Shown in pieces: positions 2,192-52,547 of a stretch of 64,000 bases of DNA. Positions within the stretch are counted from its first letter, which is position 1; each line of letters begins with the position of its first letter. Both the position numbers and the translations under genes were made by a program. The notes beneath the pieces are model-generated. The model was not told where the DNA came from. It made no database searches and saw only the letters and a list, made by a program, of their open reading frames with translations. The DNA is from Dehalococcoidales bacterium (GTDB taxonomy: Bacteria; Chloroflexota; Dehalococcoidia; Dehalococcoidales; RBG-16-60-22): positions 21,438 to 85,437 of the forward strand of contig JBEKDL010000004.1 in NCBI GenBank assembly GCA_050014355.1, read 5' to 3'.

Positions 2192-3370
2192 ATGAAATTT
2201 TCGCCGCTGTTATATAAAATCCCGGATTACCCTTTCCGCAAAGTCGGCAGGATTTCCCGGGAGGCCGAACAGCGTAATGGGGTGCGCGTTATCAACGCCC
2301 GTATCGGTATCCCCGATGTCGAAGCCCCGAAAGCTATCAAGGAAGCCCTGGCGAAGTATGTCCTCGCGGATAAGTCCACTTTCGGCTACCCCTGCGATGT
2401 GCATCCGGAACGCGGTATCCCTGAACTCATCGAGGCCATTATCGAAGACTATCGCGTGAAACACGCCGTTAACCTCCGCCCGGAAAATATCATGGTCACC
2501 AGCTGGGCTAAAGAAGTACTGTACGATATGGCCTACCTGTTTGAGCCGGGAACGGTATTTATCCCCGACCCCGTTTATCCCGTTTATGAAGCCGCGACGG
2601 TGCTCTCCAATCACCGGCCGGTAAGAGTGGCGACCTCGTCGGCCACCGGCTGGCTGCCCGAATTTAATTTCTCCAAAAAAAGCGAAAAACCCGTGGCGTT
2701 TTATTTTTGCGACCCCAATAACCCCACCGGCGCGGTGGCCGGGCACGATTATTATGTCAATCTATTGAAAAAGATGAAAGAGTCCGATGTCACGGGCATT
2801 TTCGATAAAGCCTACAAGGACTATGTTTTCGATATTAAAACAAAGCCATTTTCCATCACCCAGATTCCCGAAATCATGGAACGCGGGTACGAGATTGTTT
2901 CCCTCTCCAAGCACTACAACTTCGTCGGCATCGGGCTGGCCTGGATTGTCAGCAGCGAAGCCAACATCGACCGGTGGCTTAAGGCCTCCAGCCAGCACCG
3001 CCAGGGCGTGGAATGGTACAAACAGAAAGCCGGCGTAGAGGCTTTGAAAAATCCGGCAGTCAAGGCGGAAATGCACGCCTACTTTAAAGAGCTTAAGGAG
3101 AGAAGGGACATTTTCGTCAGGGGACTGCAGGAGCTGGGGCTGACGGTGGCCGTGTCTGAAGCCACGCCGTACCTCTGGATACAGGCCCCGGACGGCTTCG
3201 ATGATGAAGACTTCGTGCTGAATACTTTGATAAACAAAGCGCACGTGGCCTTTATGCCGGGTTCATACTTCGGGGCCAGCGGTAAAGGCTATATGCGGGC
3301 GACCCTGTTCCTCTCCCGGAGTGAAATCGAAGAAGCGCTGGAGCGCATACGGAAAGTAAAAACGTGGTGA
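2192..3370 (+). CDS. PLP-dependent aminotransferase, class I/II
   Basis: It has the DPNNPTG motif and the SLSKHYN PLP-lysine motif typical of class I aminotransferases. The substrate cannot be assigned from sequence. Confidence 0.8.
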   Translation: MKFSPLLYKIPDYPFRKVGRISREAEQRNGVRVINARIGIPDVEAPKAIKEALAKYVLADKSTFGYPCDVHPERGIPELIEAIIEDYRVKHAVNLRPENIMVTSWAKEVLYDMAYLFEPGTVFIPDPVYPVYEAATVLSNHRPVRVATSSATGWLPEFNFSKKSEKPVAFYFCDPNNPTGAVAGHDYYVNLLKKMKESDVTGIFDKAYKDYVFDIKTKPFSITQIPEIMERGYEIVSLSKHYNFVGIGLAWIVSSEANIDRWLKASSQHRQGVEWYKQKAGVEALKNPAVKAEMHAYFKELKERRDIFVRGLQELGLTVAVSEATPYLWIQAPDGFDDEDFVLNTLINKAHVAFMPGSYFGASGKGYMRATLFLSRSEIEEALERIRKVKTW

Positions 3371-22603: not shown

Positions 22604-22752
22604 TTTCAGTCGCTCCAGTCCTGTTAGCTATATAATTATAGATTTTGGAATAATATGTTATAATTATTATAATTATTATAGTCCACAATATTGTAATTGT
22701 CAATGTAATATTATATAATAATTATAAATATAATATCATATGGAGGCGGCAC
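22604..22752. promoter_or_regulatory. divergent promoter/operator region, extremely A+T-rich with reiterated TATAATTAT units
   Basis: It contains the perfect palindrome TATAATTATA (22629-22638) and runs such as TTATAATTATTATAATTATTATA. It lies between the ABC operon and the divergent TetR gene. Confidence 0.6.
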
Positions 22753-24196: not shown

Positions 24197-25729
24197 ATGA
24201 CGGACGAGAAAAACACTAAAAAAACAGGGTATCAGAGCGAAGATACTACGCCCTTCCGGTCTGTGAGGGAGTTGCGGCGGGTGAGAAAAGAGCTGCGGCG
24301 CGCGCGGAAAGAACTGAAGCGCCAGAGAAAGGACCAGCGCCCTCCTTTGCGCTATCTCTTCTGGGGGCTGATGTTAATACTGTGGGCGGTTCTCATTTTT
24401 CTTCTGGAACAAAAATGGATAACGGCAGATAACCTGTGGAAAGCTTTTATCACCGGCCTGGGAACAATCTTCATCATTCAAGCAGTAATTTATTACCTGA
24501 CACCCTCTTACCGTTCCCACGCCCTCGGACGGCTTATACCGGGCATTATTCTTACCATCATCGGCGTGGTATTTCTTTTCGGCAACAACGCCTGGTTGCC
24601 GCTGATTCTCGTCGCTGCCGGGATATCAGTTATTTTTATTTCATGGTTTCTCCAGCGGGAAATCGAAAGGCGCCGTATCACCCAGGAAACGCTGCGCGAG
24701 AGCGAGGTCAAATACAGCCATATCATCGATAATGCCAACAGCGTTATCATGGAAATAGACACCGGCGGGAATATCACGTTTATGAATAAATTCGCCCTGA
24801 ACTTTTTTGGATTTCAGGACGGGGAAATACTGGGACACAATCTGGTAGGGACCATCGTCGCCCCCGGGGCTGCGGCCATCGCCGAGCGGGACGCCATGAT
24901 TAAGGATATTATCTCCTCTCCGCAGAGCTATCTACATAATGAAAAGGGAAATCTCCGCAAGAACGGTGAGAAGGTCTGGATGGTCTGGACTTATAAGCCC
25001 ATCCTGGACGAGGTAAACAATCTTAAAGAGATATTATGCACCGGCATCGATAGGACACAGCAAAAGAAAGCCGAGGAGCTGGCCGCCCGGGAAATCAAGG
25101 AAAAAACGGCCATCGAGGAGCGCACCCGCCTGGCCCGCGACCTCCACGATGCGGTCAGCCAGACCCTGTTCTCCACCAGCCTGATTGCCGAGGTGCTGCC
25201 AAGGGTGTGGGAGCGGAATAAAGAAGAAGGCTTAAAAAAGCTCGAAGAAGTCCGCCAGTTGACCCGCGGCGCCCTGGCCGAAATGCGCACATTGCTTTTC
25301 GAACTGCGGCCCGCCGCGCTGGCCGATGCAGACCTGAATGATTTATTGCGCCAGCTAGCGGAATCAGTCATCGGCCGGGCGCGCGTGCCGGTAGCGTTAG
25401 AGGTCGAAGGGGCCTGTGAAATCCCCCCTGATGTTAAAGTCGCCCTCTACCGCATAGCGCAGGAAGCCCTGAACAACATCGCCAAGCACTCGGGAGCCAG
25501 CCAGGCACGGGTATCCCTGCACTGCCAGCCGCAGGGGATTAATTTGCAAATCATCGATAACGGGCATGGCTTCGATATCTCGCGGGCAGCCCCGGGCAGT
25601 TTCGGTCTGAATAATATGAAGGAACGCGCCGGTCAAATCGGCGCCGCGCTGCGAATTGAAAGTAAAATTAATCATGGTACCGAAATTAGCGTTGACTGGC
25701 ATGACCATGCCGGGGAGGTGCCGCAATGA
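24197..25729 (+). CDS. sensor histidine kinase (NarL/LiaS class) with a fused LiaF-like 4-TM input domain and PAS
   Basis: After the Arg-rich helix and 4 TM segments come a PAS domain, a HisKA_3-type H-box (RDLHDAVSQTL) and an HATPase domain. Confidence 0.85.
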   Translation: MTDEKNTKKTGYQSEDTTPFRSVRELRRVRKELRRARKELKRQRKDQRPPLRYLFWGLMLILWAVLIFLLEQKWITADNLWKAFITGLGTIFIIQAVIYYLTPSYRSHALGRLIPGIILTIIGVVFLFGNNAWLPLILVAAGISVIFISWFLQREIERRRITQETLRESEVKYSHIIDNANSVIMEIDTGGNITFMNKFALNFFGFQDGEILGHNLVGTIVAPGAAAIAERDAMIKDIISSPQSYLHNEKGNLRKNGEKVWMVWTYKPILDEVNNLKEILCTGIDRTQQKKAEELAAREIKEKTAIEERTRLARDLHDAVSQTLFSTSLIAEVLPRVWERNKEEGLKKLEEVRQLTRGALAEMRTLLFELRPAALADADLNDLLRQLAESVIGRARVPVALEVEGACEIPPDVKVALYRIAQEALNNIAKHSGASQARVSLHCQPQGINLQIIDNGHGFDISRAAPGSFGLNNMKERAGQIGAALRIESKINHGTEISVDWHDHAGEVPQ

Positions 25730-28769: not shown

Positions 28770-28821
28770 TTTTTCGTTTTCATGGCACAATAAAGTAAAA
28801 CTAATTATTTAAAGTAGATAC

Positions 28822-28911
28822 CCACGGGCAGAGCCCGTGGCACTTTGTAACTCAAGCTTTGCTGCACGCCCTTCGGGCGGTTACGCATTCACCCACGGGC
28901 AAAGCCCGTGG
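28822..28911. repeat. two copies of a 19-nt perfect hairpin CCACGGGC-NNN-GCCCGTGG
   Basis: The copies lie at 28822-28840 (loop AGA) and 28893-28911 (loop AAA). Each is followed by a GCCCTTCGGG motif. The second copy lies inside the predicted 5' end of znuA. Confidence 0.85.
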
Positions 28912-29836
28912 AACCCTGCCCTTCGGGTTTATTCTGGGTGCCCTCGTTGTGCTGGTTCTTCCGGGTATGCTGGCCTGTCAGCCGGGCGCGGGCACCGCCA
29001 ATAATAGCCAGAAATCCATTGTTGTTACCTATTCAATCCTTGGTTCCATAGTCAAAGACCTGGTTGGCGATAAGGCGACTGTAACCGTATCGATACCAAA
29101 TGGACTGGACCCACATGAGTGGGAGCCTTCGGCCAGAGACATAGAAAGGATAAACAAGGCCGACCTCGTTATTGAAAACGGGCTCGGGCTTGAAGGCGGT
29201 CTGGAAAAGACCCTGGCCACGGCCAGAAGCAATGGAGTAAAATTTTTTACGGCTTCCGATTACATTACTGTCCGTCATGTCGGAGCGGGGGAAGGAATTC
29301 CTTCCGGTGACCCCGACCAAGTGATTGGCGCCGCCGACCCCCATATATGGATGGACCCGGTAAGCATGAAGAGTGTCGTTAGCGCGCTGGCTCTCGCGCT
29401 GAAGAAAGACCTTAATCTGGACGTTACCGGCCAGGCAACGGACCTGGAAAACCGGCTGGACAGCCTGAACTCCGAGGTTGCTGATATAGTGGCACAGATA
29501 CCTTTAACTGAAAGAAAACTCGTCACCGGCCATGAATCAATGGGGTACTTCGCCCAGCGTTACGGCTTTAAACTGGTCGGTGTTATTATTCCCAGTCTAT
29601 CTTCACAGGCCGGGGTATCAGCCGCCGACCTGGCGGCTCTTAAAAAGGCCATCCAGAATAACCAGGTTAAAGCGATATTCACCGAGCTTGGCACTTCACC
29701 GGCGGTGGCTAAAGCCATCGGGGATGAAACGGGGGTCAAGGTGGTCGAGTTAACAACCCACGCTCTACCTGGTGATGGTTCTTATTTTACATTCCTGCTA
29801 AATCTCACTAATATTGTGGTTAACGCCCTGAAATAA
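28859..29836 (+). CDS. znuA: zinc ABC transporter substrate-binding lipoprotein (TroA/ZnuA family)
   Basis: It has a lipobox (GMLAC) and metal-ligand motifs DPHEWEPS and DPHIWMDP. The start is a putative TTG and is uncertain. Confidence 0.85.
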   Translation: MLHALRAVTHSPTGKARGTLPFGFILGALVVLVLPGMLACQPGAGTANNSQKSIVVTYSILGSIVKDLVGDKATVTVSIPNGLDPHEWEPSARDIERINKADLVIENGLGLEGGLEKTLATARSNGVKFFTASDYITVRHVGAGEGIPSGDPDQVIGAADPHIWMDPVSMKSVVSALALALKKDLNLDVTGQATDLENRLDSLNSEVADIVAQIPLTERKLVTGHESMGYFAQRYGFKLVGVIIPSLSSQAGVSAADLAALKKAIQNNQVKAIFTELGTSPAVAKAIGDETGVKVVELTTHALPGDGSYFTFLLNLTNIVVNALK

Positions 29837-29844
29837 GGATAACC

Positions 29845-30696
29845 GTGGACTTACTAATAACGCCGTTTTCAAACAATAGTTTCATGCTCCAGGCTCTTAC
29901 CGCCGGTATCCTGGTTTCCATAGCCTGTGCTATTGCCGGTACTTTTGTGATATTGCGCGGGCTGGCTTTCATCGGGGATGCGCTGGCCCACGGTGTATTG
30001 CCCGGTATTGCCGTGGCAATTTTAGCGGGTTTTCCCGGGATAATCGGGGCGGCGATAGGCGCCGCGTTCATGATTGGCGGCATCACGCTGATTACCAGGC
30101 GTTCGCGATTATCCTCTGATACTGCTATCGGGCTTTTATTCATCGGAATGCTGTCCCTGGGTGTCGTCATCGTGTCCCGCTCCAACTCTTTCAGCGGCGA
30201 CCTTACCCGCATACTCTTTGGCGAGATTCTGGGCATCAGCACACGGTCAATTTTGATTCAGCTGATAACCACGATTATTATCGCGGCTATCGCTATCATT
30301 TGCGCCCGGCCGTTCCTGCTGCTAAGTTTTGACCCCGAGCAGGCCCAGGTGGCCGGTTTCTCCGCACGCTTTTATCATAATATTATGCTCTTCATGGTCG
30401 CGGCCACCGTGATTGTATCTTTCCAGACCGTGGGCACTCTACTCGTCTTCGGTTTGCTTATCGCGCCGGCCGGCGCCGGTGCCCTGCTGGCGCGGCGCAT
30501 CGAAGTGATGATAGCCTGGGCGATACTCTTCGGCATTCTGTCAATGTATTCAGGGTTATTAATCAGCTATTATTTTAATCTGGCCGCGGGAGCTTCGGTG
30601 ATACTCGTGACAGTGTTAATCTTTTTTATCGTTTTTACTATTCAGAATATACGGCATCGCCGGCTGGTCCATCCCCGGGAGTTGAAACATGTATAA
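29845..30696 (+). CDS. znuB: zinc/manganese ABC transporter permease
   Basis: It is a ZnuB/TroC-type permease with 8-9 TM segments and a GTG start after AAGGA. Confidence 0.85.
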   Translation: MDLLITPFSNNSFMLQALTAGILVSIACAIAGTFVILRGLAFIGDALAHGVLPGIAVAILAGFPGIIGAAIGAAFMIGGITLITRRSRLSSDTAIGLLFIGMLSLGVVIVSRSNSFSGDLTRILFGEILGISTRSILIQLITTIIIAAIAIICARPFLLLSFDPEQAQVAGFSARFYHNIMLFMVAATVIVSFQTVGTLLVFGLLIAPAGAGALLARRIEVMIAWAILFGILSMYSGLLISYYFNLAAGASVILVTVLIFFIVFTIQNIRHRRLVHPRELKHV

Positions 30697-31528
30697 TCAG
30701 GGAAAGGCTTTTGCCTCACCAAAGAACCCCGGCGCTCTATGTATACAGACCAGGGCGCTTGATATTGGTTACGCCGACGAGGTTGTCGTGGCGGATATCA
30801 ACTTCGAGCTAAGACCGGGCGAGGCCATCGCCCTTATCGGCACTAATGGCTGCGGTAAATCGACCCTTTTAAAAACGATTGTGGGTCTGCTGCCGCTTCT
30901 GGGAGGCCACCTGTCGGTATTCGGAGCTCCTCCCGGCAACACCCCTTCCCGGATAGCCTATCTTGGTCAGTTCCATGCCTCCGGGTTTGTCCTACCTATC
31001 CGCACTACAGATGCGGTGCGCATGGGCCGCTTCCCTCTTTATGGCCTGTGGAAGCGCATGGGCCGGCAGGATGATGATATTATTTTTTCCGCCATGCGCA
31101 CCATGGGAATCGAAAAACTGGCCGACTCTCCATTACGCTCACTATCCGGCGGGCAGCAACAGCGGACCTATATCGCCCAGGTCCTGGCTCATCAGGCGGA
31201 CCTGCTGGTGCTCGATGAGCCGACGTCCGGTCTGGATGCCGGCGGCAGAGAACTCTATTTGCAGGCAATAAATAATGAGCTACGCCGGGGAGCTTCGATT
31301 ATCGTGGCCACGCATGATATCCAGGAAGAAGCGGCGCTTTGCCATCAGGTAATGCTCCTGGCCCGCAAAGTAGTCGCTATCGGCGCGCCGCAGGATGTAA
31401 TCACGCCCGAAGCCTTGCTGAAGACATTTGGCATCGTGGTGACCGGTGATAAACGTCTTCAGGTAATTGAGACCAAACACGGGCATGGCGGTAGCGGGCC
31501 ACCGGACGTCACCCAAGAGGAACATTAA
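30689..31528 (+). CDS. znuC: zinc/manganese ABC transporter ATP-binding protein
   Basis: It has Walker A GTNGCGKST, the signature LSGGQQQR and Walker B LVLDEP. Confidence 0.85.
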   Translation: MYNQGKAFASPKNPGALCIQTRALDIGYADEVVVADINFELRPGEAIALIGTNGCGKSTLLKTIVGLLPLLGGHLSVFGAPPGNTPSRIAYLGQFHASGFVLPIRTTDAVRMGRFPLYGLWKRMGRQDDDIIFSAMRTMGIEKLADSPLRSLSGGQQQRTYIAQVLAHQADLLVLDEPTSGLDAGGRELYLQAINNELRRGASIIVATHDIQEEAALCHQVMLLARKVVAIGAPQDVITPEALLKTFGIVVTGDKRLQVIETKHGHGGSGPPDVTQEEH

Positions 31529-31561
31529 TTTGTATCTCCGGTCTCACTCAATAGATAGTCT

Positions 31562-32350
31562 ATGATAGCGATTAATGTGGACCCGGTGGCCTTAACTATC
31601 GGACCTTTATCTGTCCGCTGGTACGGCTTGATGTATGTCGTGGGCATCAGCGTCGGTTTACTGATAGCCTGGCCATATGCCAAGGCCAAAGGGTTCATCG
31701 CCAACCAGTTTGTAACAATCGTTTTATGGGCGGTTCTGGCAGGGTTCGTCGGCGCCAGACTGTACTACGTCGTTCAACAACCTTTAGGACCATACCTCGT
31801 AGAGCCGTGGCGCATTCTGGCAGTATGGGAAGGCGGGATGGCCTTTTACGGGGCCATCTTCGCCGTAGTAATCGTGTTATTTATTGCGGGCTGGCGCCTG
31901 AAAATTTCCACTCTGAAACTACTGGACGTCGGGGCGCTTTTTGCCGCAGTTGGACAGTTCTTTGGCCGCATCGGTAACTTTATCAACGGAGACGTTATCG
32001 GTTACCCTACGGGTTTACCCTGGGGAGTGGTGTACGCTAATCCCAACTCATTCGCTCCAAGACACGATATAGCCTACCAGCCGGCGGCCGCATATGAGGC
32101 CTTGATAAACGTACTGCTCTTCGGTCTTCTCTGGTGGCTGCAGAACAGACTGAAGCCGGGCGTATTATTCTTTGTCTACATCCTTGGCTATTCCATCAGC
32201 CAGATAATCGTGTTTACCTGGCGGGATAACGAGGTAGTATTCCTTGGACTGAAGCAGGCGCAACTGACGGCCATAATAGTTATCATCATCGCTGTAGCTA
32301 TTTTTCTGGCGTTGTTCAGGCGACAGCGTAAACCCGCAACCAGACCTTGA
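31562..32350 (+). CDS. lgt: prolipoprotein diacylglyceryl transferase
   Basis: Lgt hallmarks are present: RWYGLMYV, GARLYYV, GRIGNFINGD. Confidence 0.9.
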   Translation: MIAINVDPVALTIGPLSVRWYGLMYVVGISVGLLIAWPYAKAKGFIANQFVTIVLWAVLAGFVGARLYYVVQQPLGPYLVEPWRILAVWEGGMAFYGAIFAVVIVLFIAGWRLKISTLKLLDVGALFAAVGQFFGRIGNFINGDVIGYPTGLPWGVVYANPNSFAPRHDIAYQPAAAYEALINVLLFGLLWWLQNRLKPGVLFFVYILGYSISQIIVFTWRDNEVVFLGLKQAQLTAIIVIIIAVAIFLALFRRQRKPATRP

Positions 32351-32395
32351 GAAAACGAGCGGAAGGACTGCGGTACCGCTCGAAAAGGAGAGACC

Positions 32396-33167
32396 ATGTT
32401 CAAGGTAAAAGCAACGGTAATTGATTTCCTCGGCGACAAAGAAAAATACCCGTGCCATCATCGATATAAACTCGGCGATGAGTTTATCTTCGATGGCGAG
32501 AGCTTTTCTGGTACAATTTGTCCGAGCCTGGCGCCCCTGGTCGTGCCTAAAATAATTGAGCTTCATGCCGCCGGGCCGAGATACCGGGACACGCTATTTT
32601 ATTACCCTTTCCTGTACTCTCCGGTGAGCGCGGAGGACCCTTCGCTGAAAAGTGAGCGCGGAGGACCCTTCGCTGAAAATCTTCGACGGTGTCGGGTTCA
32701 GGAATGTCCTGCAGACCTATACAGAACCCAGATACCACATGGCTAACCTAGCCAGCAGCGGCTTTAAATGGCCGCCGCCCGAAGCGAGGACCGTGCGCAA
32801 GGACGTCACGATTATCTGCCCTGACTACCGCACCTCCGTGAAGGTGAAGCTTGAAGCCTTCGACTTAAGCGATAAAGGCCGCAACATACCCTATTTCCGC
32901 AGAGAAATGGTACTCTTGCACAAGATTCAAAAAAAGCCGGGCATCAAAATAGATGATATCCTCGGCGAATTTTCCCGTGAACAGATAGAAGGGATATACC
33001 CGGCTTTAAGCCAGGTAATGGTCCGGATGTTAGTGGAGGAGCTGGAGCTAATGTCCTACCTGGGAATCCAAGATGACCGAGCTAAAATCACCAAAAAAGG
33101 GAAGGCTAAACTTGCCGGTTTCAGAGCGGGTCTATCGAAGGAAGAGATAAAGGCGCTGGAAATTTAA
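32396..33167 (+). pseudogene. gene for a roughly 247-aa protein (TIGR04076-like N-terminus, low confidence) disrupted by a +1 frameshift from a 28-bp tandem duplication
   Basis: ORFs 32396-32746 and 32652-33167 share the peptide SAEDPSLK at the junction. Removing one 28-bp copy fuses them in frame (...SPVSAEDPSLKIFDGVGF...). Confidence 0.85.
32624..32679. repeat. perfect 28-bp tandem duplication (2 copies)
   Basis: GTGAGCGCGGAGGACCCTTCGCTGAAAA occupies 32624-32651 and is repeated exactly at 32652-32679. Confidence 0.97.
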
Positions 33168-33356: not shown

Positions 33357-34547
33357 ATGGCTAGCGTACTGGAAGGGATTAAAGTTCTGGATTTGACGCA
33401 GGTGTATTCCGGGCCGTTTTGCACGCTGCTGCTTAAAGATATGGGCGCTGAAATCATTAAAATTGAAAGGCCTGGCGCCGGTGACCTGATAAGGAACGAT
33501 GTGCCGCATACGGAAGGCATGGAAGGCGGCCCTTTTATTATCTTGAACCGCGGGAAAAAAAGCCTGACTCTGAATCTAAGGACTGAAAAAGGCCGCAATA
33601 TCTGCAAAGAGCTGTCTAAAAAAGTCGATGTGCTGGTCGAGAATTTCAGCCCGGGGACGATGGACAAGCTCGGCCTTGACAGCAAAGTGCTCTGCAAGCT
33701 GAACCCCGTCCTGATATATGCCTCGATTTCCGCCTACGGGCAGACCGGCCCTTTGCGCGATTACCCCGGCTTTGACCCGGTCGCCCAGGCCATGGGCGGC
33801 ATGACCGCCGTCACCGGCTTCCCGGATAATCCCACCCGTTGCGGTGTATCAATTGCCGACTTTTCCACCGGCATTTTTACCGCGTATTCCATCATCGGCG
33901 CGCTGTTTCACCGGATGAAAACCGGCGAGGGCCAGACGATAGATATTTCCATGCAGGAATGTATCTGGCAATTGACCTCTATCGAGTTTGCGCCATACTA
34001 TTTCCTTAACGGCCAGGACCCGCCGCGCCTGGGAAACCGGCATGCGGCGATGATACCCTGCAACCTTTACCCCACCCAGGACGACAGAATCTTTATCATG
34101 GCCGGCGTCCTCGACCAGCTCAAGCGGCTTTATACCACCATGGGCCGTCAGGACCTCCTTAACACCCCGCTCTGCGCCAACCAGAACGAACGCTACAAGT
34201 ACCGGGATGAAATCGATAACATAATCACGGGCTGGACAAAGACCAGGAAGACCGATGAAATCATGGCGCTGCTCCGCAAAGCCGATGTACCCTGCTCCAG
34301 ATTCCCCACCTTCACGGAAGTCTGCCATGACCCGCAACTGCTAAGCCGGAACGCCATCATCGAAGTGGAACAGATGATATCGGGTAAAGTGAAAGTCCCC
34401 GGCTCTCTCTTCAAGCTTTCTAAAACGCCCGGCAAAATCGATTACCCGGCCCCGTTCCTCGGCCAGGATAATCACGATGTTTTATCAGAAATGCTCGGCT
34501 ACAGCGGGGAAGAAATAACGAAGCTGACTGATGAAGGTGTCCTCTAA
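33357..34547 (+). CDS. family III CoA-transferase (CaiB/BaiF type)
   Basis: The N-terminal LEGIKVLDLTQVYSGPFCTLLLKDMGAEIIKIERPGAGD is typical of the family. The RBS is GAGGAGG. Confidence 0.88.
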   Translation: MASVLEGIKVLDLTQVYSGPFCTLLLKDMGAEIIKIERPGAGDLIRNDVPHTEGMEGGPFIILNRGKKSLTLNLRTEKGRNICKELSKKVDVLVENFSPGTMDKLGLDSKVLCKLNPVLIYASISAYGQTGPLRDYPGFDPVAQAMGGMTAVTGFPDNPTRCGVSIADFSTGIFTAYSIIGALFHRMKTGEGQTIDISMQECIWQLTSIEFAPYYFLNGQDPPRLGNRHAAMIPCNLYPTQDDRIFIMAGVLDQLKRLYTTMGRQDLLNTPLCANQNERYKYRDEIDNIITGWTKTRKTDEIMALLRKADVPCSRFPTFTEVCHDPQLLSRNAIIEVEQMISGKVKVPGSLFKLSKTPGKIDYPAPFLGQDNHDVLSEMLGYSGEEITKLTDEGVL

Positions 34548-34674: not shown

Positions 34675-37308
34675 ATGCATAAGTTAAAACGCCGGCTGAT
34701 AGGCGGCGCGTTGGTGTTCGCGTTGCTGTTTGTATGCCTGTTCATTCCAGCGTTAATACCCCGCGCCGAAGCCGGCACGTTAGCGGCGTCCTCCCCGGCC
34801 CCCGACCTCACGATTGCATCAATTACCATTTCACCGGATACGCCTTCCATCGGGGATACGGTAACTTTCACCGTGACAGTACAGAACCGGGGAGACGGCC
34901 CGGCAGCGGCATCTCTGCTCGCCTGTTTTATCGATGAGCAAAACTTTGCTACGAGCCAGGTTGACGCAATAAATGCCGGCGCGGTCACGATGATAACTTT
35001 TACCTGGAAAGCGAAGGCGGGGCCGCACGTATTCAGGGCGGTCATCGATAGTAATGACAGCATCGCCGAGTCCGACGAGAACAATAACGATAGGACGATC
35101 GCTTTTTCCGTCCTCGCGGCGGACCTTACCGTCAAGGCGATTTCATGGGTGCCGGTCAGTCCGGCCATGGGAGATACCGTAACTTTTACGGTAACGATTA
35201 CCAACCGGGGCGATAAAAAAGCCGGTAGTTCCCAGCTCGATTTTTCCATCGACGGCAATTCACGGGGTTACCGCACCCTTCTCCCGATAGAAGCCGGCGC
35301 CAGCGTCAACGAGACCTATACCTGGGTGGCTTTATCCGGCACGCATAACATCAGGGCCGTCGCGGATGTGCTGCAGCAGGTTGCCGAGAGCGATGAGACC
35401 AATAACGCTCTGGAGGCTACCCTGGCGACCGCTCTCCCCGACCTGATAATCAATTCTTTGACCGTTTCTCCTCAGAGTATTTTGGCTGGTGATAATGTTA
35501 CATTAACGGCTATAGTTATAAACCAGGGCAGCGGCAGAGCGGTACCATCTATAGTAGCGTGCTATGTCGACAACACGCTTTGGGATTCAACCTACGTTAG
35601 CTTTTTGAGTCCAGGTGAGACTTCGACAGTAACATTCGAGTGGACAACCGATGATAATCCGCACCTCTTCAAAATAATCGCCGATGCCACCGATGTAGTC
35701 AAAGAAAGCGATGAGACCAACAATGTGGCGACCGCTCCATCGCCCCTGGTCTTACCTGACCTTGTTATCCAGAACATCACATGGTCACCTGTATCTCCCG
35801 TAATAAACACTCCGGTGATATTTACGATTACGGTTGCAAACCAGGGTAAATGCAAGTCCTCCTACACTGACCTTAAATACGGAATAAATACTATTTACCA
35901 GTTTACCGCGGTAATTAGCGATCTGGCCCCCGGTGAAACGGCCACGACCACGTTTATGTGGATTCCGGCGTACCCGTCATTCACCATACAGGCCGCCATC
36001 GATACCGCCAATTCTGTCCGAGAAAGCAATGAGTCTAATAACACCTTAACGAAAACGGTTAACTGCATAAATCCCGCGCCGACCGCCGACCTTATCGTTC
36101 AGGACCTCACTGTATCGCCGGCGAAGCCGGTAATCGGAGACACTGTCACGCTAAGCTTGAGTGTAAAAAATCAGGGCACCGGCACGGCGGTCGGTTCGTA
36201 TGCCGCCATTTATCTGGATGATAGCAGGATAAACACGGTATTTATCGATGAGCTTAGCGCCGGAGCGACAATCAATAAAGACATGCCTGTCTCGCTTGCA
36301 GGCCTTACCTACAAAAGCTCGTACAAAATTAGAGTGGAACTCGATTGTAACAGCAACGTATTGGAGACCAATGAATTTAACAATACGAAGGAAATATCTT
36401 TCTCGGTGCTCGCCCCGGACCTCATTGTCCAGAGCATAGAATGGGCGCCGGAACTGCCCGCCGCCGGAGGGCGCATTACATTTGATATTACGGTGAAAAA
36501 CCGCGGCGACGCGAAGGCCGGTAGCTACAAAATTTCCTACTACGTCGATAACGTTTTTGCCGGCCAGCACCTCATCGAGACTATGGAACCCGGGGCCACG
36601 GTTAACCGGTCTTTCACCTGGACGGTTCAAAAGGAACCGTTCACCCTCAATGCGGTTATTGATGAAGCCAACGAAATCAAGGAACAGGATAAATCTAATA
36701 ACAGTAAATCAGTCACTATACCTGCTCCTGATTTGGTAATCGATTTGATAACATGGACGCCGGAAAAGCCGGTAGAAATCGGTCTGGTTACTTTCACCGT
36801 TGGCATTAAAAATCGAGGGTACGGCCAGTCCCCCGGCACTCTTTTATATTGCTATATCGATAGCGCCGCGCCGCTAAGTCTGAAAACCGGGGAAATCGGC
36901 CCCGGCGGGACAACATCCATCACCTTCACTAACTCGTTCATGTCCGGCGGGCACGTCATCCGCTTAATAGCGGACGGTAATGATGCCGTGGCCGAGAGCG
37001 ATGAATCAAATAATGAGAAAACCATCAATATCTCCGTACAACCCTTGCCTAATACCGCATCAACCGTTGCAGTCAAGCCAGCAACCGCCGTTTCCGTAAC
37101 CACCCCTAACCCCGGGGTAACCCCCTCCCCACTGAATAAAACTCCGGCCCAGACGGCAACGGGTAACATCACCTCCAATCTTAAGTCCGCGCCGCCGAAA
37201 TGGCAGAGTATCCTCCAGAACCGCTGGCTCATCATCGGCGTGGCCGTGCTGGGCATCGGCGCTATCGGGGTGCTGCTGGTTTTCAGGAGGAAGAGGAAAA
37301 ACAAGTAA
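34675..37308 (+). CDS. cell-surface protein with seven tandem CARDB-like domains, a Thr/Pro-rich stalk and a C-terminal TM anchor
   Basis: It has a signal peptide, then seven repeats of about 107 aa (roughly 34801-37044). Each repeat carries PDL-x-[IV]...GD-x-VTFT-[IV]-x-N-x-G...ESDE-x-NN. The C-terminus is WLIIGVAVLGIGAIGVLLVFRRKRKNK. Confidence 0.8.
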   Translation: MHKLKRRLIGGALVFALLFVCLFIPALIPRAEAGTLAASSPAPDLTIASITISPDTPSIGDTVTFTVTVQNRGDGPAAASLLACFIDEQNFATSQVDAINAGAVTMITFTWKAKAGPHVFRAVIDSNDSIAESDENNNDRTIAFSVLAADLTVKAISWVPVSPAMGDTVTFTVTITNRGDKKAGSSQLDFSIDGNSRGYRTLLPIEAGASVNETYTWVALSGTHNIRAVADVLQQVAESDETNNALEATLATALPDLIINSLTVSPQSILAGDNVTLTAIVINQGSGRAVPSIVACYVDNTLWDSTYVSFLSPGETSTVTFEWTTDDNPHLFKIIADATDVVKESDETNNVATAPSPLVLPDLVIQNITWSPVSPVINTPVIFTITVANQGKCKSSYTDLKYGINTIYQFTAVISDLAPGETATTTFMWIPAYPSFTIQAAIDTANSVRESNESNNTLTKTVNCINPAPTADLIVQDLTVSPAKPVIGDTVTLSLSVKNQGTGTAVGSYAAIYLDDSRINTVFIDELSAGATINKDMPVSLAGLTYKSSYKIRVELDCNSNVLETNEFNNTKEISFSVLAPDLIVQSIEWAPELPAAGGRITFDITVKNRGDAKAGSYKISYYVDNVFAGQHLIETMEPGATVNRSFTWTVQKEPFTLNAVIDEANEIKEQDKSNNSKSVTIPAPDLVIDLITWTPEKPVEIGLVTFTVGIKNRGYGQSPGTLLYCYIDSAAPLSLKTGEIGPGGTTSITFTNSFMSGGHVIRLIADGNDAVAESDESNNEKTINISVQPLPNTASTVAVKPATAVSVTTPNPGVTPSPLNKTPAQTATGNITSNLKSAPPKWQSILQNRWLIIGVAVLGIGAIGVLLVFRRKRKNK

Positions 37309-50501: not shown

Positions 50502-52547
50502 TTGGCTAACATGTCTTGTCATCCCACAACCCCGGTAAAAGCAACGGGTAAAAGCAACGGCGGCAAGACCCTGACCATCGCCCTGGCCGGTAACGCTAAC
50601 GTCGGCAAGAGCGTCATTTTCAACCAGCTGACCGGCTCGCACCAGACCATCGGCAACTGGCCCGGCAAGACCGTGGACAGCGCTAAGGGCAGCCTCCACT
50701 TCGACGGTTATGATATAACCATTGTCGACCTGCCCGGAATTTATTCTCTCTCCACCTTCTCCCTGGAAGAACTCGTCACCAGGGACTATATCGCACAGGA
50801 AAAGCCCGATGTCATCATCGACGTTATCGGTGCTCCTGTACTGGAACGGAACCTTTTCTTCACCCTGCAGCTCATGGAATTGAATACGCCCATGGTAGTA
50901 TGCCTCAACCAAGTCGACCTTGCCCGTTCACAGGGGATAACCATCGGCGTTCCGAAGCTGGAGAACTGGCTGGGCGTCTCCGTGGTGCCCACCACGGCCT
51001 CCCGGGGTCAGGGCATACGTGAGCTCATCGGCAAGGCTATTGAAACAGCCAACACTACAGAAAATGCGGCCGAACCCGTCGCCGGTTTCAGAGAAGGGCA
51101 CGGCAAAGACAGCACAGCGGGGCACCGGAATCGCCGGAGAGCGCGTTTCCGGGGCGGCCTTGACGACAGCATCGAAGGACTGGCGTCTCTTGTTGAATCG
51201 GAGAAGCTTGGCCTTGAATTCCCCCCGCGGTGGGTGGCGCTCAAGCTGCTCGAAGGCGACACGCAAATACACGAAGTAGTAGGCTCGAAATCGGAGAGCA
51301 TCCTACCTGCAGCCGAGAAATTGGCAAAAAAGATGGAAGAGGTCTACCGGCAGCCGCGCTTTGCGGCCATCGCTTCGGAGCGATACGCCCTGGCCAGCCA
51401 GATAGCCCAGGATGTGCAGAGCCGGGCAGCTACCAGGCCCACTCTGGCCGATAGACTCGACCGCCTGACGACCCAAAAAGTGGCCGGGTATGTCATGGCA
51501 TTCATCGTCATTGCCGGGCTGCTGCTGTGGACTTTCACCGTGGGGAATTCCCTTTCCAGGCTGCTGGCAAACGCCTTCAGCTTTTTTCATCCGGTAAACC
51601 CGCAGGTCAGCGGCACACTTGGGAGCGTCATCTGGAACGGCGTGTTCGGGGGCTTCGTCGCCGGAGTGACGCTGGTGCTGCCTTTCGTTATTCCATTCTA
51701 CCTGCTGCTGGCCGCGATGGAGGATTCAGGGATTCTGACACGGGTCGCCTTTATGCTTGATAGCGCCATGCACCAGCTGGGGCTACACGGCAAAGCGATT
51801 ATCCCGCTCATACTCGGCTATGGCTGCAATGTCCCCGCTATCTACTCCACGCGCATTATGGGTACCAGACGGGAGCGGCTGCTCGCGTCTTTCGCTATTA
51901 CCTTCGCGCCCTGTACCGCGCGGACGATAGTTATCCTCGGTCTGGTGGCCGTCTTCGTCGGTATAGGGTGGGCGCTGGCGCTTTACGCCCTGGACTTGCT
52001 GATAATGTTCGCTGCCGTTAAAGTTGCCCTTAAGATAAATCCGGGAGAAACGCCCGGCCTGATAATGGAGATGCACGCTTTTAAAGTGCCGTCCCTTAAA
52101 GTAATCGCCAGGCAGACATGGTCACGGACAAAGTCGCTGATTTTCATGGTCTTCCCGATGTACATGGCAGGCACTGCCGCCGTCCAGGGGTTGTACGCTT
52201 CTGGCGTGCTGGGACCGGTCAGCCATACCCTGTCCCCGCTGACGGTAGGCTGGCTGGGACTGCCGGTCATCGCGGGCATCCTGCTGATATTCGGTATCGT
52301 CAGAAAAGAAATGATACTTCTCACCCTAGTCGCGATATACGGTACGAACCTGGCGGTAGTCTTGACTCCCGACCAGTTTTTCGTGCTGGCCCTGGTTGGT
52401 ACGTTATACCTCCCCTGCATCGCAACCATAGGTATTCTCACCAGGGAGTTCGGCTGGAAACCGGCCGCGGCGATATCAGCCGCTAACCTAGCTTCGGCGC
52501 TGCTCTTCGGCGGCATCGTCGCCAGGATACTTACGCTCATCCATTAG
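50502..52547 (+). CDS. feoB: ferrous iron transporter FeoB
   Basis: It has an N-terminal G domain (GNANVGKS, DLPG, NQVD) followed by a polytopic membrane domain. The TTG start lies 8 nt after GGGAGG. Confidence 0.9.
   Translation: MANMSCHPTTPVKATGKSNGGKTLTIALAGNANVGKSVIFNQLTGSHQTIGNWPGKTVDSAKGSLHFDGYDITIVDLPGIYSLSTFSLEELVTRDYIAQEKPDVIIDVIGAPVLERNLFFTLQLMELNTPMVVCLNQVDLARSQGITIGVPKLENWLGVSVVPTTASRGQGIRELIGKAIETANTTENAAEPVAGFREGHGKDSTAGHRNRRRARFRGGLDDSIEGLASLVESEKLGLEFPPRWVALKLLEGDTQIHEVVGSKSESILPAAEKLAKKMEEVYRQPRFAAIASERYALASQIAQDVQSRAATRPTLADRLDRLTTQKVAGYVMAFIVIAGLLLWTFTVGNSLSRLLANAFSFFHPVNPQVSGTLGSVIWNGVFGGFVAGVTLVLPFVIPFYLLLAAMEDSGILTRVAFMLDSAMHQLGLHGKAIIPLILGYGCNVPAIYSTRIMGTRRERLLASFAITFAPCTARTIVILGLVAVFVGIGWALALYALDLLIMFAAVKVALKINPGETPGLIMEMHAFKVPSLKVIARQTWSRTKSLIFMVFPMYMAGTAAVQGLYASGVLGPVSHTLSPLTVGWLGLPVIAGILLIFGIVRKEMILLTLVAIYGTNLAVVLTPDQFFVLALVGTLYLPCIATIGILTREFGWKPAAAISAANLASALLFGGIVARILTLIH

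Follow-up and report, generated by a model that had tools for sequence, protein, structure and literature searches.

Why does a gene of a Dehalococcoidales metagenome-assembled genome (MAG) lie in two pieces, and does the break belong to the cells or to the assembly? Within the window (the entire 64,000-nucleotide stretch analysed here, whose coordinates are used throughout), a 28-bp sequence occurs twice in tandem inside a single reading frame. The preliminary description of this DNA read the pair as a very recent slippage event, a reversible switch, or an assembly artefact. We have compared the locus with related assemblies, with the wider protein family, and with contigs of the same population produced by other assemblers, and we weigh these readings below.

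A perfect 28-bp duplication within one gene

The features concerned are these:

32396..33167, + strand: the whole disrupted gene; minus one copy of the repeat it gives a 247-aa protein with a TIGR04076-type domain and a putative winged helix
32396..32746, + strand: upstream half-ORF of 116 aa (…SPVSAEDPSLKSERGG…), with residues 1-85 native and then 31 out of frame before a stop
32624..32651, + strand: copy 1 of the 28-bp unit GTGAGCGCGGAGGACCCTTCGCTGAAAA, encoding V77-K85 plus one extra base
32652..32679, + strand: copy 2 of the 28-bp unit, extra relative to all relatives; its GTG starts the 171-aa ORF annotated by NCBI
32652..33167, + strand: downstream half-ORF of 171 aa with a GTG start (MSAEDPSLKIFDG…), comprising native residues 77-247

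The two copies are identical by direct string comparison, and Tandem Repeats Finder describes the tract at 32624-32679 as having a period of 28, 2.0 copies, 100% matches, and a score of 112, which bears out the perfect duplication first claimed from the letters. There are exactly 2.0 copies, and the repeat cannot be extended by even one base at its left (…CTCCG/GTGA…) or right (…AAAA/TCTT…) edge; inspection of both edges found no microhomology at the ends. Where the single-copy form reads …CTTCGCTGAAAA / TCTTCGACGG…, the duplicated form reads …CTTCGCTGAAAA / GTGAGCGCGGAGG…, and the junction k-mer made by the duplication is …GAAAAGTGAGC…. This is the sole perfect tandem duplication with a period greater than 13 in the window, and the chance expectation of a perfect 28-bp tandem copy in a sequence of this length is about 64000 x 4^-28, or about 1e-12. 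No further copy of the unit, full or partial (at least 12 bases), was found elsewhere in the 64 kb. The DNA fold at the site is not unusual (z = 0.43) and includes no hairpin, and no Rfam match to a structured RNA was found between 31500 and 34000.

As 28 is not divisible by 3, the reading frame shifts after K85 and meets a stop 31 codons on. Both ORFs are present as the preliminary description gave them, the segment that it had noticed at the junction is retained in both halves (as VSAEDPSLK), and removal of one 28-bp copy yields an ORF of 247 aa, the length that it had anticipated. The disrupted gene has a good ribosome binding site (AAGGAG, 5-6 nt before the ATG), and its upstream half-ORF keeps the TIGR04076-like domain with C20, H21, and C42; the downstream half-ORF includes the invariant C132 and the putative winged-helix C-terminus. 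Since the break severs C20, H21, and C42 from C132 and the putative winged helix, the duplicated allele is most likely null. A search of the junction by eye for a programmed ribosomal frameshift found no canonical X XXY YYZ heptamer, and the orthologues are single-frame.

The 171-aa half-ORF (P0098 in our protein set) is annotated by NCBI as MGD0794197.1, 'hypothetical protein ABR958_01190 [Dehalococcoidales bacterium]', on an 86,999-bp MAG contig, and the duplication is therefore present in the MAG as deposited. In the protein collection searched, this product is recorded only from one NCBI contig, and the 116-aa upstream product has no exact entry.

Comparison with relatives

An independent ENA assembly of this population, ERZ27250059, is about 99.99% identical to the window over 42.5 kb (loci L002, L004, and L024). 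Small indels are absent, and the differences amount to four SNPs (13197, 13222, 38065, and 49044) plus two larger indels, one being the 28-bp duplication and the other a 62-bp deletion at 28933/28934. The gene is present in one copy on contig k141_702832 of that assembly, where all 744 nt agree with the repaired window gene, and its 247-aa product (P0122) is identical to the repaired protein; the intact P0122 is also the sole full-length member of the 90% cluster to which the 171-aa product belongs. One copy is likewise found in L001 (JGI 3300038425, about 98% identical to the window), in L003 (ENA ERZ25039515, 91-95% identical), and in L007 (JGI). When JGI metagenome contigs and GTDB genome contigs were scanned with a 20-mer from the unit, no second duplicated contig was found; apart from two chance matches, every contig recovered belonged to this population and was single-copy.

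The wider family tells the same story. The repaired protein has 669 homologues in our search, and 118 of the best 120 are 247-263 aa long, at 99-100% coverage. Among these best 120 of 669, the exceptions to full length are P0098, the 171-aa product itself, and P0077 (ENA, 213 aa), in which a frameshift near residue 190 cuts the protein short. We asked whether P0077 might be another gene split at this junction, and the position of its break, which differs from the window's, rules this out. An alignment of 44 homologues contains no indel at V77-K85, the segment between the invariant P76 and D88, and dN/dS of the intact gene against three relatives is 0.07-0.09.

Taken together, the single-copy relatives, the absence of length variation at V77-K85 in the alignment, and the low dN/dS mark the intact single gene as ancestral and under purifying selection elsewhere. 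The preliminary description had proposed that orthologues carrying two separate genes at this junction would speak against a recent disruption; the homologues proved to be single genes of 247-263 aa, not split there, so this objection falls away. Since single copies occur in the near-identical ENA contig, the relatives, and the homologues, and the split product occurs, in the protein collection searched, only as MGD0794197.1, the duplication is derived and unique to this assembly; it is also very recent, with no decay in either half.

Domain structure and gene neighbourhood

The TIGR04076 model (NCBIfam) scores 33.2 bits against a curated cut-off of 33 (E = 5.7e-08), a borderline result, and the match is partial, residues 1-63 aligning with profile positions 1-61 of 91. 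All 44 aligned homologues match the model at E <= 0.01 (best E, 8.4e-11) through their first ~60 residues. The earlier, low-confidence guess of a TIGR04076-type protein was thus right for the N-terminal ~63 residues, and the relationship, as the sequences present it, is at the level of the N-terminal domain; the protein is not a full-length family member. TIGR04076 proteins are about 90 aa long (NCBIfam), whereas the window protein has 247 residues and carries, outside the model, a conserved ~60-residue insertion, an extra Cys-bearing beta-hairpin, and a putative C-terminal winged helix. No Pfam family matched the 247-aa protein. The sole comment on the function of TIGR04076 that our searches produced is a guess, at the level of annotation, of roles in redox or iron-cluster metabolism (table in PMC8667426).

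The AlphaFold model of the 247-aa protein has a mean pLDDT of 73. Residues 1-62 form a confident beta/alpha module; residues 65-122, with the duplicated segment inside, are modelled with low confidence yet are conserved in sequence; strands at 128-148 bear C132; and residues 156-245 form a confident helical domain, the C-terminal region having pLDDT values of 80-94. C20, H21, C42, and C132 are invariant in the family, as judged from the 44-homologue alignment. The top Foldseek matches of the C-terminal domain are all winged-helix proteins (aS19/eS19, CggR, MarR, and PadR), none of them at E <= 0.001; the match to the DNA-binding domain of CggR has a TMt of 0.67 and an rmsd of 1.6 with a weak E-value, and a profile match to eS19 reaches E = 0.0015 over residues 158-239. 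The helical C-terminus of the preliminary description therefore stands as far as the model goes, and these weak matches suggest that it is, more precisely, a winged helix. The protein is predicted to join a Cys/His domain that binds metal or a cluster to a winged helix that binds nucleic acids. In the searches made, we found no characterised member of a family with this TIGR04076-like and winged-helix combination.

The gene downstream (33357-34547) encodes a family III CoA-transferase (PF02515, E = 2.9e-112), as the preliminary description had said, and the adjacency is lineage-specific. The order Fur, ZnuA, ABC-3, ABC ATPase, Lgt, TIGR04076/winged-helix gene, CoA-transferase III, CARDB, SIR2 is kept only among close relatives. 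In the P0016 lineage (81% identity) the downstream neighbour is URO-D-like, and in the P0084 lineage (67% identity) the gene is on its own, with Opp clusters on either side. We considered the CoA-transferase as a clue to function and rejected it, because its adjacency is limited to this lineage and is uninformative on that point.

Directly downstream of the CoA-transferase, at 34675-37308, lies a gene for an 877-aa secreted CARDB-repeat protein; the lengths called for it are 877 aa in L001, 864 aa in L002, and 604 aa in L003. As L002 and the window are 99.98% identical in DNA, at least the discrepancy between 877 and 864 aa stems from the choice of start codon.

A strain branch point at the edge of the duplication

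The 3′ edge of the duplication (32651/32652, in single-copy terms) is the last base common to the window and a co-occurring strain of the L001 type. In that strain the preceding 123-mer is identical, and the base that follows is C in place of T. The JGI contigs L009 and L019 and the Logan contig L020 terminate exactly at 32651, the last base of copy 1. L009 is 100% identical to window positions 29895-32651, and another JGI contig, L007, begins 123 bp upstream of the 32651 end and reads through the single-copy junction; the overlap of 123 bp between these two Ga0187886 contigs indicates a graph branch at k = 123. Contigs of Logan SRR7028477 stop at 32651 and restart at 32783, the end of the strain bubble, where both strains are identical again. 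We considered the contig ends at 32651 as independent evidence that the duplication is polymorphic in the population. The identical 123-mer of the L001-type strain, the different base after it, and the Logan restart at 32783 attribute these ends to a SNP bubble between two strains, and we rejected that use of them. Given 34 SNPs in 744 nt, a random edge would fall on such a branch point with a chance of 5-9%.

A second indel near znuA

The 62-bp deletion at 28933/28934, measured against the ENA contig (L002 323-384), has the junction GGGTTTATT / CTGGGTGCC. It is the only indel besides the 28-bp duplication in the 42.5 kb compared, and it lies 3.7 kb from it. The deletion removes the ribosome binding site and the ATG (MKVKCTI) of a ZnuA-like lipoprotein gene; the reading frame continues upstream as far as a TTG at 28859 (325-aa ORF), so the signal peptide may be remodelled, not lost. 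The deletion starts at the right end of a REP/MITE-like insertion of ~120 bp.

That insertion (28815-28933), in the fur-znuA spacer, is present in the window and in L002 and absent from L001 and L003. It is made up of two copies of ACCCACGGGCA(G/A)AGCCCGTGG, which has a palindromic core, together with two copies of GCCCTTCGGG.

Origin of the duplication

The reading we prefer, with our belief in it evenly balanced, is that the feature is a real, very young duplication mutation in the consensus of one Dehalococcoidales MAG. Replication slippage or template switching would have generated the 28-bp tandem duplication in cells; the duplication would then shift the frame after K85, bring in a stop 31 codons later, and abolish function; and, being perfect and in tandem, it could revert by the exact loss of one copy. 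The presence of the duplication in cells, the loss of function, and the mutational mechanism are what we infer from the assembled sequence and its relatives. Part of the preliminary description agrees with this: its suggestion of a very recent disruption of an intact gene is sustained by the 0 differences in 744 nt. A serious rival, to which we assign somewhat less than an even chance, is an artefact of assembly or of post-assembly processing, in which case the organism would carry the intact 247-aa gene. Such an artefact could have arisen, by conjecture, if graph-adjacent contigs with a 28-base overlap (k-1, with k = 29) were joined untrimmed; alternatively, polishing, gap-closing, or merging may have mis-repaired a site at which several strains co-occur. 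The position of the 3′ edge speaks for an error of this sort, since it lies exactly on the strain branch point, where the 123-mer common to the L001-type strain gives way to C instead of T and where two other assemblers (JGI and Logan) break their contigs precisely at 32651. Had an overlap been left untrimmed, the copy should be perfect, its ends free of microhomology, and the two copies undiverged, and all three are seen. In the same direction point the second window-only indel, which begins at the edge of the strain-specific ~120-bp insertion 3.7 kb off, and the remainder of the 42.5 kb, in which small indels are absent and SNPs number four; for real divergence, the ratio of two indels (28 and 62 bp, both within 3.7 kb) to four SNPs in 42.5 kb is unusual. 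The duplicated allele, moreover, was found in no independent assembly in the protein collection or in the JGI and GTDB contig scans. Against an artefact, de Bruijn-graph assemblers are normally unable to create a junction k-mer that is absent from all reads, and standard pipelines of this kind invent none. The value k = 29 is conjectural. The window contains no other perfect duplication of 28 bp or longer, so the artefact would not be a systematic one; the 62-bp deletion is left unexplained by an untrimmed overlap; and a coincidence of edge and branch point at a 5-9% chance is not negligible. The case resembles the frameshift pseudogenes and local mis-assemblies familiar from MAGs in that the break affects a single gene, at a site of strain heterogeneity, and that neither the near-identical sister assembly nor any relative shares it. 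MAG frameshifts are for the most part 1-2-bp indels, and the perfect 28-bp duplication seen here is a less common form.

The remaining readings give the duplication a biological role. It could be an evolved, reversible ON/OFF switch, a form of phase variation in which gain and exact loss of the 28-bp copy would turn the gene off and on, as in pneumococcal cap3A; we regard this as very improbable indeed. The cap3A duplications were reportedly described by Waite et al. in 2001 and the phcA duplications by Poussier et al. in 2003. Intragenic tandem duplications with exact reversion serve as ON/OFF switches in cap3A of Streptococcus pneumoniae type 3 and in phcA of Ralstonia solanacearum, according to two accounts that cite this work (PMC11163986; bioRxiv 10.1101/2023.04.27.538605). 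The window resembles those cases, as these accounts present them, in having a short, perfect, out-of-frame intragenic duplication as the OFF allele, one from which loss of one copy restores the exact wild type; it differs in that switching was shown there by experiment and at many positions per gene, whereas here there is one occurrence in one MAG, known from sequence alone. Both states do exist in near-identical genomes, with two copies in the window and one in the ENA locus L002, and exact reversion is possible for perfect tandem duplications and has precedents. Revertibility is common to any perfect tandem duplication, however, and is thus no proof of an evolved switch. The OFF state was seen once, with no recurrence: set against one duplicated allele are the single copies of L001, L002, L003, and L007, and this comparison disclosed no recurrent length change of the kind expected of a phase-variable locus. 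No repeat array, microhomology, or secondary structure (z = 0.43) predisposes the site, which in the single-copy allele contains no repeat; neither the 44 aligned homologues nor the best 120 of the 669 include a length variant at this junction; and the contig breaks there reflect the strain SNP bubble, not a duplication allele. We found nothing in favour of the switch that the preliminary description had entertained beside a recent disruption, taken as an evolved device.

A related reading, highly unlikely in our estimation, takes both indels as real: the duplication and the 62-bp deletion would be independent, recently selected disruptions within one Fur-ZnuABC-Lgt-TIGR04076/winged-helix neighbourhood, and the duplication would be the revertible OFF state of a metal- or redox-sensing winged-helix protein. 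If true, this would be duplication switching of the cap3A type, but in an environmental anaerobe, namely an uncultured Dehalococcoidales population. Barely credible to us is a functional split gene, both half-ORFs being made and working as two polypeptides. As a result of the duplication, an in-frame GTG does follow the GGAGGA (32632-32637) that copy 1 supplies, the VSAEDPSLK segment is kept in both halves, and the NCBI pipeline called the 171-aa ORF. But that GGAGGA is the sole Shine-Dalgarno-like sequence upstream of the GTG at 32652 and stands 14-15 nt away, outside the usual spacing of 5-10 nt; the break falls in a conserved segment, not in a linker; C132 and the strands at 128-148 are parted from C20, H21, and C42; and none of the best 120 of the 669 homologues is split at this junction. 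We conclude that the duplication is an ordinary event, either a mutation of very recent date or an error of assembly, and that it does not represent a new biological system.

Other loci noticed

At the 5′ end of feoB (50534-50560) the window contains a perfect tandem repeat of two 13-bp copies, with the unit GGTAAAAGCAACG, and it is in frame. Both copies are needed to keep the annotated FeoB N-terminus (TTG 50502 or ATG 50511) in one frame with the G-domain. The repeat is identical in four assemblies, one of which is only 98.4% identical, and is therefore fixed, which suggests an older duplication that has been absorbed into the coding sequence. Its unit shares a 14-mer with the 5′ end of the TIGR04076/winged-helix gene. 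We considered the repeat as a sign of paralogy or as a second recent duplication and rejected both, because it is fixed and in frame and because 64 kb of sequence should hold one shared 14-mer by chance.

Between 13368, where the ENA assembly of this population stops, and 28612, where it picks up again, the window may contain a strain-variable region or island. No exact entry for the 510-aa protein encoded at 24197-25729 was found in the collection, and AT-rich repeats occur at 22658-22741.

Two further genes are split in L003 (ENA ERZ25039515 contig_122813, a Flye-style name), at these positions:

2451-3301: ABC-3 permease, split into 107 + 182 aa
9986-10700: SIR2, split into 135 + 117 aa

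These splits are probably long-read frameshift errors of that assembly.

Implications

The duplication is a known and ordinary kind of event, and its use lies mainly in annotation and in the quality control of MAGs. The NCBI entry MGD0794197.1, a 171-aa 'hypothetical protein', is the back half of a broken 247-aa gene and deserves an annotation flag. The position of the break, on a strain branch point, offers a useful example of how gene disruptions in MAGs can be caused, or imitated, by co-occurring strains. Should the duplication be real, as we prefer to read it, the population would provide a routine case of a very young, revertible loss-of-function allele. The family to which the intact gene belongs, with its TIGR04076-like and putative winged-helix domains, 669 homologues, and a dN/dS of about 0.08, is of mild interest independently of the duplication.
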